Below, piece after piece: positions 55,543 to 64,000 of a stretch of DNA of 64,000 nt. Source of the DNA: Escherichia coli (GTDB lineage: Bacteria > Pseudomonadota > Gammaproteobacteria > Enterobacterales > Enterobacteriaceae); assembly GCF_011045215.1 (NCBI RefSeq), contig NZ_CP049201.1; one strand, 5' to 3'. The notes below the pieces were generated by a model. That model did no database searches and was not told the origin of the DNA. It was given only the letters and a program-made list of their open reading frames with translations. The first letter of the stretch is position 1. Each line of letters starts with the position of its first letter. The translations under genes were made by a program, and so were the position numbers.

Positions 55543-58500
55543 TTAATGAATAAGAAATTTAAATATAAGAAATCGCTTTTAGCGGCTATTTTGAGTGCAA
55601 CCCTGTTAGCCGGTTGTGATGGCGGTGGCTCCGGATCTTCCTCCGATACGCCGCCTGTAGATTCTGGAACAGGGTCTTTGCCGGAAGTGAAACCTGATCC
55701 AACACCAAACCCGGAGCCGACGCCTGAGCCAGCGCCGGACCCAGAGCCTACGCCAGAACCGATACCTGATCCTGAACCAACACCAGAACCGGAGCCAGAA
55801 CCTGTTCCTACGAAAACGGGTTATCTGACCCTGGGCGGAAGCCAGCGGGTAACTGGTGCTACCTGTAATGGTGAATCCAGCGATGGCTTTACATTTAAAC
55901 CTGGCGAGGACGTTACTTGCGTGGCGGGTAACACGACAATTGCCACCTTCAACACTCAGTCAGAAGCTGCGCGTAGCTTGCGTGCGGTTGAAAAAGTGTC
56001 GTTTAGCCTTGAGGACGCGCAAGAACTGGCGGGCTCCGATGACAAGAAAAGCAATGCGGTTTCGCTGGTAACGTCCAGTAACAGCTGTCCGGCGAATACA
56101 GAACAGGTTTGTCTGACGTTCTCCTCGGTGATCGAGAGTAAACGCTTCGACTCGCTGTATAAGCAAATCGATCTGGCACCGGAAGAGTTCAAAAAGCTGG
56201 TCAATGAAGAGGTGGAAAACAATGCTGCGACCGATAAAGCGCCATCCACTCATACTTCACCGGTCGTGCCCGTCACCACGCCGGGAACAAAACCGGATCT
56301 GAACGCTTCCTTCGTGTCGGCTAACGCGGAACAGTTTTATCAGTATCAACCCACTGAAATCATTCTCTCTGAAGGTCGACTGGTCGATAGCCAGGGATAT
56401 GGTGTTGCTGGCGTCAACTACTACACCAATTCAGGCCGTGGCGTGACAGGGGAAAATGGTGAATTTTCCTTTAGCTGGGGCGAAACCATCTCCTTTGGTA
56501 TCGATACCTTTGAACTGGGTTCAGTGCGCGGCAATAAGTCGACCATTGCGCTGACTGAACTGGGTGATGAAGTTCGCGGGGCGAATATTGATCAGCTTAT
56601 TCATCGCTATTCGACGACCGGGCAAAATAATACCCGTGTTGTTCCGGACGATGTACGCAAGGTCTTTGCCGAATATCCCAACGTGATCAACGAGATTATC
56701 AATCTCTCGTTATCCAACGGTGCGACGCTGGGGGAAGGTGAGCAAGTCGTTAATCTGCCTAACGAATTTATTGAGCAGTTTAAGACGGGTCAGGCCAAAG
56801 AGATCGATACCGCGATTTGTGCGAAAACCGATGGTTGTAACGAGGCTCGCTGGTTCTCGCTGACGACGCGCAATGTTAATGACGGCCAGATTCAGGGCGT
56901 TATTAACAAGCTGTGGGGTGTGGATGAAGATTACAAATCGGTGACGAAATTCCACGTCTTTCATGACTCTACCAACTTCTATGGTAGCACCGGTAATGCG
57001 CGCGGTCAGGCGGTGGTGAATATCTCTAACGCGGCCTTCCCGATTCTGATGGCGCGTAATGATAAAAACTACTGGCTGGCGTTTGGCGAAAAACGCGCCT
57101 GGGATAAAAACGAGCTGGCGTACATTACGGAAGCGCCTTCTCTTGTTGAGCCGGAAAACGTTACGCGCGATACCGCCACCTTTAACCTGCCGTTTATTTC
57201 GCTGGGGCAAGTGGGCGATGGCAAGCTGATGGTTATCGGTAACCCACACTACAACAGCATTTTGCGTTGCCCGAACGGTTACAGCTGGAACGGGGGCGTT
57301 AATAAAGACGGGCAGTGTACGCTCAGCGGTGATTCAGATGACATGAAGCACTTCATGCAGAACGTACTGCGCTATCTGTCCGACGATAAATGGACGCCGG
57401 ACGCGAAAGCCAGCATGACCGTAGGCACCAACCTGGATACTGTCTATTTCAAACGTCATGGTCAGGTTACAGGAAACAGCGCTGAGTTCGGTTTTCATCC
57501 GGATTTTGCTGGTATCTCTGTTGAACATTTAAGTAGCTATGGCGATCTCGACCCGCAGGAAATGCCGCTGCTGATCCTTAACGGCTTTGAATATGTGACT
57601 CAGGTTGGTAACGATCCTTATGCAATCCCGCTGCGAGCAGATACCAGCAAACCGAAGCTGACCCAGCAGGATGTGACCGATCTGATCGCCTATCTGAACA
57701 AAGGTGGATCGGTGCTGATCATGGAAAACGTGATGAGCAATCTTAAGGAAGAGAGCGCGTCTGGTTTTGTGCGTCTGTTGGATGCTGCAGGTCTGTCAAT
57801 GGCACTGAACAAGTCGGTGGTGAATAACGATCCTCAAGGGTATCCGAACCGCGTTCGTCAGCAGCGCGCAACGGGCATTTGGGTCTATGAACGTTATCCT
57901 GCCGTAGACGGTGCGCTGCCGTACACCATCGATAGTAAGACAGGGGAAGTTAAGTGGAAATATCAGGTAGAAAACAAACCTGATGACAAACCGAAGCTGG
58001 AAGTTGCCAGCTGGCTGGAAGATGTAGATGGCAAACAGGAAACGCGTTATGCCTTTATTGATGAGGCCGATCATAAAACAGAGGATTCTCTGAAGGCTGC
58101 GAAGGCAAAAATCTTTGAGAAGTTTCCTGGATTAAAGGAGTGTAAGGACCCAACTTACCACTACGAGGTCAACTGTCTGGAATATCGTCCTGGCACGGGG
58201 GTTCCGGTTACTGGTGGCATGTATGTTCCACAGTATACGCAACTAAGCCTTAACGCCGACACGGCAAAAGCGATGGTGCAGGCTGCGGATTTAGGCACCA
58301 ACATTCAGCGTCTGTATCAGCATGAACTCTACTTCCGGACCAATGGTCGCAAAGGTGAGCGTCTGAGCAGCGTCGATCTGGAACGTCTGTACCAGAACAT
58401 GTCGGTCTGGCTGTGGAACGATACGAGCTATCGTTATGAAGAAGGCAAAAATGACGAGCTGGGCTTTAAAACGTTCACCGAGTTCCTGAACTGCTATACC

Positions 58501-62723: not shown

Positions 62724-64000
62724 GTGTTTTGGCGTGATATTACGTTGTCGGTCTGGCGTAAGAAGACAACTGGCCTCAAAACAAAAAAGCGTTTACTGCC
62801 GCTGGTGCTGGCAGCGGCATTATGCAGTTCACCGGTCTGGGCGGAAGAAGCCACTTTCACCGCTAATTTTAAAGATACCGACCTGAAATCGTTCATCGAA
62901 ACCGTCGGCGCTAACCTTAATAAAACCATCATTATGGGGCCGGGCGTACAGGGGAAAGTGAGTATTCGCACCATGACCCCGCTCAATGAACGCCAGTATT
63001 ACCAGCTATTCCTTAACCTGCTGGAAGCACAGGGGTATGCGGTCGTACCGATGGAAAACGACGTGCTGAAGGTGGTGAAATCCAGCGCCGCAAAAGTCGA
63101 GCCGCTGCCGCTGGTTGGTGAAGGCAGCGACAACTACGCGGGCGATGAAATGGTCACCAAAGTAGTGCCGGTACGTAATGTGTCGGTACGCGAGCTGGCA
63201 CCGATTCTGCGCCAGATGATCGACAGCGCAGGCTCAGGCAACGTTGTTAATTACGATCCCTCCAACGTGATTATGCTCACCGGACGCGCCTCCGTTGTGG
63301 AGCGCCTGACGGAAGTGATCCAGCGTGTGGATCACGCGGGTAATCGCACTGAAGAGGTGATCCCGCTGGATAACGCCTCGGCTTCGGAAATCGCCCGCGT
63401 GCTGGAAAGCCTGACTAAAAACAGCGGCGAGAACCAGCCTGCGACGCTGAAATCTCAAATTGTCGCCGACGAACGCACCAACAGTGTGATTGTCAGTGGT
63501 GACCCGGCCACGCGGGACAAAATGCGCCGCCTGATCCGTCGCCTGGACTCAGAAATGGAGCGCAGCGGCAACAGCCAGGTGTTCTATCTCAAATACAGCA
63601 AAGCCGAAGATCTGGTCGATGTACTGAAGCAGGTCAGCGGCACGCTCACGGCGGCTAAAGAAGAGGCGGAAGGCACGGTCGGTAGCGGGCGTGAGGTTGT
63701 CTCCATCGCCGCCAGCAAACACAGTAATGCCCTGATTGTAACCGCGCCGCAGGACATCATGCAGTCGCTGCAAAGCGTGATTGAACAACTGGATATTCGC
63801 CGTGCTCAGGTGCACGTCGAGGCGTTGATCGTGGAAGTGGCCGAAGGCAGTAATATCAACTTCGGCGTGCAGTGGGCGTCGAAAGATGCCGGATTAATGC
63901 AGTTTGCTAATGGTACGCAGATCCCTATCGGTACGCTGGGGGCAGCCATTTCTCAGGCGAAACCGCAGAAAGGCTCGACGGTGATCAGTGAAAACGGCGC
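62724..64000 (+). CDS. gspD: Type II secretion system secretin GspD, 3' end truncated by the window edge
   Basis: Not in the ORF track because there is no stop before the window end. My translation from the GTG at 62724 gives a signal peptide (…LLPLVLAAALCSSPVWA) followed by secretin N0/N1-like sequence (…VVPVRNVSVRELAPILRQM…, …VHVEALIVEVAEGSNINFGVQWAS…). Confidence 0.85.
   Translation, partial: MFWRDITLSVWRKKTTGLKTKKRLLPLVLAAALCSSPVWAEEATFTANFKDTDLKSFIETVGANLNKTIIMGPGVQGKVSIRTMTPLNERQYYQLFLNLLEAQGYAVVPMENDVLKVVKSSAAKVEPLPLVGEGSDNYAGDEMVTKVVPVRNVSVRELAPILRQMIDSAGSGNVVNYDPSNVIMLTGRASVVERLTEVIQRVDHAGNRTEEVIPLDNASASEIARVLESLTKNSGENQPATLKSQIVADERTNSVIVSGDPATRDKMRRLIRRLDSEMERSGNSQVFYLKYSKAEDLVDVLKQVSGTLTAAKEEAEGTVGSGREVVSIAASKHSNALIVTAPQDIMQSLQSVIEQLDIRRAQVHVEALIVEVAEGSNINFGVQWASKDAGLMQFANGTQIPIGTLGAAISQAKPQKGSTVISENG

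Follow-up and report, generated by a model that had tools for sequence, protein, structure and literature searches.

The 5′ part of the sslE-type II secretion system beta operon, with an intact variant-II type sslE, in an Escherichia coli chromosome

Introduction

The lipoprotein SslE (YghJ) and the type II secretion system beta (T2SS-beta) are encoded together (sslE-pppA-yghG-gspC-M) in enterotoxigenic E. coli (ETEC) H10407, enteropathogenic E. coli (EPEC) E2348/69, E. coli W, IHE3034 and UTI89, and these loci are the characterised counterpart of the one described here, which occupies positions 55546-64000 at the end of a 64,000-nucleotide stretch of the E. coli contig NZ_CP049201.1 (referred to as the window). 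In the published work, a promoter that precedes sslE gives rise to a single polycistronic message; H-NS and StpA repress the operon at low temperature, and Fis activates it. SslE is displayed on the cell surface and released. Its degradation of mucin depends on HEVGH (mucin lysis was lost in an IHE3034 mutant with HEVGH changed to YVVGY), and it also supports biofilm maturation. YghG/AspS serves as pilotin for GspD-beta, a Vibrio-type secretin to whose N0 domain GspC binds through its HR domain. T2SS-beta also exports the heat-labile enterotoxin (LT) in ETEC H10407, for which PppA is required. The T2SS-beta/SslE locus is already known: publications cover its genes, structures, regulation and population distribution, and the solved structures include the substrate SslE and the secretin-pilotin complex.

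Identity and layout of the locus

The region 55546-64000 almost certainly covers the first two-thirds, on the 5′ side, of the chromosomal E. coli operon for T2SS-beta, sslE-pppA-gspS(beta)-gspCDEFGHIJKLM. On the + strand, glcA, which ends at 55061, is followed by sslE, a spacer with repetitive extragenic palindromic (REP) sequences, pppA, gspS-beta, gspC-beta and the 5′ part of gspD-beta:

55069-55099, + strand: terminator-like hairpin after glcA (12-bp stem with 6 G-C pairs, T-rich tail)
55062-55545, + strand: AT-rich upstream region of sslE (484 bp; GC 30.2% against 51.8% for the window)
55546-60105, + strand: sslE (yghJ), 1519-aa lipoprotein zinc metalloprotease, variant-II type allele (NCBIfam, Pfam, PDB)
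60106-60431, + strand: intercistronic REP/bacterial interspersed mosaic element (BIME) array of 326 bp, about 2.5 units of ~130 bp (direct and inverted repeats)
60432-61241, + strand: pppA, prepilin peptidase/N-methyltransferase, 269 aa (Pfam A24 domains)
61307-61717, + strand: gspS-beta/yghG/aspS, outer-membrane pilotin lipoprotein, 136 aa, lipobox LLSG-C25 (Pfam, PDB)
61735-62694, + strand: gspC-beta, inner-membrane protein, 319 aa, TTG start (NCBIfam, PDB)
62724 (GTG)-64000, + strand: gspD-beta secretin, codons 1-425 of 686 (open frame that runs off the window edge)

A preliminary description of this DNA had proposed SslE with its T2SS-beta, in the order mucinase, prepilin peptidase, pilotin, GspC and the start of a GspD cut by the window edge. 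All of these genes were found in this order on the + strand, the arrangement was supported by synteny with RefSeq loci and by family models, and the gspD frame is open to base 64000. Gene content, gene order and the site 3′ of glcA were identical to those of the RefSeq-annotated loci in ETEC6335, PapM-32-1 and IHE3034, in which the naming is sslE-pppA-gspS2-gspC-gspD-gspE...gspL-yghD (yghD being GspM). All five frames contained no internal stop or frameshift, and were collinear with annotated orthologues at 97-100% amino acid identity; the check for frameshifts in gspC or gspD that the preliminary description had put forward detected none over all of gspC and the 425 gspD codons. In the comparison with PapM-32-1, identity was 98.4% for SslE, 267 of 269 residues for PppA, and 100% for the pilotin, GspC and the GspD fragment. 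Frame lengths together with the database matches were far beyond chance, and nothing within the window contradicted the T2SS-beta reading.

The intrinsic-terminator-like hairpin at 55069-55099 is the upstream limit of the sslE transcription unit. The AT-rich region (55062-55545) showed 99-100% identity with ETEC6335 and is the expected place of the H-NS/StpA-repressed, Fis-activated promoter known from the literature. No recognisable Shine-Dalgarno sequence was present in the 20 bases before the starts of sslE (55526-55545), pppA (60412-60431), gspS-beta (61287-61306) and gspC (61715-61734), gspD being the sole gene of the five with one in this interval (AGGAG). Non-ATG starts were found in gspC (TTG) and gspD (GTG).

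SslE

The preliminary description gave a 1520-aa lipoprotein with a HEVGH motif. The lipobox and HEVGH were both confirmed; the length was corrected to 1519 aa, and the start had been placed three bases off, at 55543 (TTA). The open reading frame (ORF) that holds sslE spans 55528-60105, and the true start is ATG 55546: this ATG and the bases following it coincide with the primer published for cloning sslE of E. coli W (ATGAATAAGAAATTTAAATATAAGAAATCG), and RefSeq (in the closest complete genome) and the gene calls on eight related contigs begin the gene at this codon as well. TTG 55528 was rejected as a start, and antisense ORFs of 150-225 aa within sslE were unsupported.

SslE matched NCBIfam NF037973 over profile positions 1-1519 of 1519 (3501.5 bits; cut-off, 3000) and the SslE/AcfD lipoprotein zinc metalloprotease subfamily NF037974 (1983.5 bits; cut-off, 800), and the match with PDB 23px had an E value of 0. 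On the other hand, assignment as an ImpA-family metalloprotease (NF038322) was rejected, with a local match only of 65 bits against a cut-off of 250; judged from sequence, SslE is related to this family via its M60 domain and is not a member. The following features were located within the protein, the Pfam query for its domains starting at residue 340:

55546-55617, + strand: signal peptide and lipobox LLAG-C24, with Asp at +2 (Asp25) (translation)
56794-57300, + strand: DUF4092, aa 417-585 (Pfam PF13322, E=1.1e-92)
58783-59937, + strand: M60-like_N and Peptidase_M60 catalytic domain, aa 1080-1464 (PF17291, 6e-11; PF13402, 8.7e-37)
59452-59508, + strand: zinc motif HEVGH-X13-E, H1303...E1321 (translation HEVGHNAAETPLTVPGATE)

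The N-terminus reads MNKKFKYKKSLLAAILSATLLAG-C24-D and is followed by a Pro/Glu-rich linker. HEVGH itself corresponds to aa 1303-1307 (59452-59466), and HEVGH-X13-E satisfies HEXXHX(8,24)E, the published definition of the M60-like motif.

PppA, the pilotin, GspC and GspD

PppA contained both domains of an A24A prepilin peptidase (A24_N_bact PF06750, 4.9e-34; Peptidase_A24 PF01478, 2.7e-24), the Cys pairs of the methyltransferase region, C66xxC69 (CPHC) and C91xxC94 (CRDC), and the Asp motifs IIDLD145 and GMGD208, in which the putative catalytic Asp residues were assigned by analogy. The exact protein was found on many E. coli contigs. The pilotin matched Pfam T2SSS_2 (PF16549, 4.8e-16), which makes it AspS-type rather than PulS/OutS-type; from Cys25 on it matched 5zdh_P of the ETEC secretin-pilotin cryo-electron microscopy structure (2.3e-68), and it also matched V. 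cholerae AspS (4ftf, E=8e-6). No NCBIfam model matched PppA or the pilotin, and both were identified through Pfam.

GspC contained a transmembrane segment together with HR and PDZ domains: aa 121-186 resembled 3oss_C (HR) and aa 222-316 resembled 2i4s (PDZ), and NCBIfam NF007242 covered positions 1-319 of 319 (735.6 bits; cut-off, 561). The part of GspD in the window comprises the signal peptide, N0-N3 and the start of the secretin domain; it was identical to RefSeq WP_000498829 (425 of 425 aa) and matched TIGR02517 partially (3.2e-90). The match with ETEC GspD-beta 5zdh_A (2.3e-242) started at residue 41, which fits the removal of a signal peptide of 40 residues. With the 385 mature N-terminal residues, 5zdh_A scored 807 bits against 337-406 for the next full-length chains listed (5wq8, 6hcg and 5wq7), the Vibrio-type class being defined in the literature by the S-domain, which lies beyond 64000. 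Near-identical PDB structures for the proteins of the locus are 23px, 5zdh, 3ezj and 3oss.

Comparison with described systems

The characterised SslE/T2SS-beta loci share genes, order, spacing and the glcA-adjacent site with the present locus, their proteins being 88-100% identical, and also the lipoboxes, HEVGH...E, the AspS-type pilotin and the Vibrio-type secretin N-terminus. Differences were allelic only, and the SslE allele differs from its nearest one by A63T and A162T. The K-12 remnant (yghJ-pppA-yghG-yghF-yghE-yghD) has the same flanking glcA, with sslE, pppA, the pilotin and most of gspC 97-98% identical at the amino acid level. However, K-12 has lost gspD-K: homology stops at base 62697 of the window, just past the gspC stop, and YghF carries a 12-aa foreign tail. 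Since the window continues from this deletion junction for 1303 bp into an intact gspD frame, the locus is not of the K-12 type.

The AcfD/Eps T2SS of V. cholerae belongs to the same SslE/AcfD subfamily (NF037974), pilotin fold family (4ftf) and, putatively, Vibrio-type secretin class, but consists of distant orthologues, the pilotin match being only E=8e-6. The substrate gene of V. cholerae is not known to be operon-linked in the same manner as sslE. Pseudomonas IMPa and baculovirus enhancin (M60-like mucin proteases) share Peptidase_M60 and HEXXHX(8,24)E, with a weak ImpA-family match. SslE differs from them in its lipid anchor and in an N-terminal region of ~1000 aa that is unique to it.

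Predicted function of the system

The mechanism outlined here is taken from published work on orthologues, and is combined with the identity, order, intactness and motifs found in the window. Transcription would begin within the AT-rich stretch that precedes sslE, repressed by H-NS/StpA in the cold and activated by Fis. SslE would be exported by Sec and lipidated at Cys24; by analogy with lipoprotein-sorting rules and pullulanase, Asp at +2 may hold the protein in the inner membrane, out of the Lol pathway, until T2SS engages. PppA would mature the pseudopilins, the AspS-type pilotin GspS-beta would carry GspD-beta to the outer membrane, and the HR domain of GspC would join the inner-membrane platform to the N0 domain of the secretin. 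Passing through GspD-beta, SslE would then reach the cell surface and the medium, where its C-terminal M60-like domain (HEVGH...E) is predicted to cleave mucins and the protein to support biofilm maturation.

It is unlikely, in our view, that SslE is mainly a biofilm-matrix/amyloid-like aggregating protein or a general colonisation factor, with mucinase as a side activity. According to the literature, biofilm maturation is promoted by SslE, which at low pH aggregates in an amyloid-like form, RefSeq labels K-12 YghJ a putative amyloidogenic protein, and the first 1000 aa showed no protease homology, DUF4092 being the only recognised domain. On the other hand, the M60 domain and the HEXXH...E motif are fully conserved, the HEVGH-to-YVVGY mutant of IHE3034 did not lyse mucin, and the biofilm and mucinase roles are not mutually exclusive.

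Alongside the mucinase reading of SslE, the range of cargo has to be considered. The T2SS had been called dedicated to SslE in the preliminary description, which is too strong a word for a system that, in the literature, also secretes LT in ETEC H10407. Export of other cargo, such as the heat-labile enterotoxin, by the T2SS-beta of this strain would be in line with that PppA-dependent secretion and with a secretin near-identical to the ETEC one, but it is quite improbable: the closest relatives are animal and environmental isolates, with no pathotype in the record fields shown, and no toxin genes were found in the window, where none are expected in any case, these genes being usually plasmid-borne.

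Completeness beyond the window edge

In ETEC6335, PapM-32-1 and IHE3034, the operon continues after the five genes with gspE-L and yghD (GspM). PapM-32-1 is 99.7% identical in the flank, and its locus runs from gspD through yghD to pheV. The exact PppA allele retrieved eight loci, all of which (8/8) had gspD-K and the start of gspL. The nearest public relative (L008, GCA_012378815.1) differed by 3 single-nucleotide polymorphisms (SNPs) across 52000-64000, two of which account for A63T and A162T in SslE, and has gspD to gspK all open, plus the gspL start. Because gspD-K are intact in such near-identical relatives, from which the presence of gspE-M is inferred, the source strain very probably carries a full secretion system.

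Several points weigh against the assignment of the locus as T2SS-beta. The exact SslE allele (1519 aa) was absent from the public gene collection, and a simple sigma-70 consensus scan upstream of sslE gave no promoter match. Beyond base 64000 are gspE-M and the last 261 aa of GspD, with the S-domain that binds the pilotin. Furthermore, the locus is naturally disrupted in the species, by the K-12 deletion and by insertion sequence IS1 in pppA.

That the locus is a decayed remnant, whose secretion system is broken beyond 64000 by a deletion, insertion sequence or frameshift so that SslE is made and not secreted, as in K-12, is very improbable: K-12 does retain yghJ, pppA, yghG and a fused yghF without gspD-K, ~340 more complete genomes carry sslE than the 5′ half of gspD (3603 vs 3261), IS1 insertions in pppA occur and gspE-M are past the window edge, but the window passes the K-12 junction with 425 perfect gspD codons, gspD-K are intact together with the gspL start in 8/8 loci with the same PppA allele (one of them only 3 SNPs off), and both complete-genome relatives examined (2/2) are annotated through gspM.

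Two observations on the locus in other strains were made in passing. IS1A is inserted at this locus in E. coli J2 and O121 strain 201805972, pppA being annotated in two pieces in J2; this insertion is a natural route of T2SS-beta inactivation other than the K-12 deletion. In IHE3034 (locus L014, 1-7300), the K1 capsule neu/kps genes come directly after yghD/gspM, the place taken by pheV in PapM-32-1 and ETEC6335. The difference between the IHE3034 and pheV-type flanks is consistent with the hypervariable pheV site that adjoins the operon according to the literature.

Distribution and allelic diversity

With a minimum coverage of 80%, this sslE was present in 3603 and the gspD fragment in 3261 of 5426 complete E. 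coli genomes. Most strains of the species thus carry the locus (~60-66% of complete genomes, commensals included), and it is not a marker of special strains. In the preliminary description, it was taken to mark the strain as carrying this colonisation factor: the genes are indeed present, but do not distinguish the strain.

Across E. coli, sslE showed far greater diversity than the neighbouring gspD, the best places having mostly 80-95% nucleotide identity for sslE (3312 of 4102 records) and mostly 95-99% for gspD. Compared with ETEC6335, sslE was a mosaic, with 91-100% identity per 300 bp. Another relative (L004) has this sslE allele (2 SNPs), yet more than 50 differing sites from 60983 onward, and this shift in identity implies a recombination breakpoint near pppA. 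At the amino acid level, SslE was 97.0% identical to K-12 YghJ, which is variant 2 in Nesta et al., and 88.2% identical to IHE3034 SslE, a variant 1 protein; since it is closer to the former, the allele was assigned to variant II.

The sslE-pppA spacer

The array between sslE and pppA (60106-60431) gave sub-threshold naRNA4/REP matches in Rfam, and at the gathering threshold no RNA family was detected within 55000-64000, these REP-like naRNA4 hits being the only ones. As RNA, the spacer folded at -149 kcal/mol (z=-5.95 versus shuffled controls). Strains vary in the length of this spacer, which is 326 bp here and 121-197 bp in three reference strains with a shorter one (K-12, 197 bp; IHE3034, 163 bp; PapM-32-1, 121 bp). 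A 353-aa ORF at 60180-61241 was dismissed as an extended form of PppA because the 84 codons at its beginning are read-through of REP sequence.

The array is strongly structured and its length varies by strain. It might control the ratio of substrate to machine, either by stabilising the mRNA or by partly terminating transcription and so setting the SslE:secretion-machine ratio, an effect that we regard as decidedly doubtful. If true, copy-number variation in the spacer could help explain published strain differences in SslE output.

Other elements in the window

Upstream of yghO, a lipid-related gene cluster occupies 35059-44109, and small RNA (sRNA) elements were detected with Rfam elsewhere in the window:

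37835-39981, + strand: LptF/LptG paralogues
40016-41188, - strand: serine palmitoyltransferase (NF047599, 597 bits)
42379-44109, - strand: fatty acyl-AMP ligase
53079-53300, - strand: C0719 sRNA in the glcB-glcA intergenic region (Rfam, 299 bits)
10881-10944 (- strand), 16725-16795 (+ strand) and 27768-27844 (both strands): ES173 sRNA and two naRNA4 (REP325-type), above the Rfam gathering score

The lipid-related cluster also holds an acyl carrier protein, an NAD-dependent epimerase, a YtfJ-family protein and a YghQ-like protein. In K-12, IS5 lies between yghO and a shortened yghQ, and the genes of this cluster are missing.

Implications

SslE is a broadly conserved colonisation factor and a vaccine candidate. 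Without adding new biology, the intact variant-II sslE and the start of an undeleted T2SS-beta described here help to annotate and type the strain.

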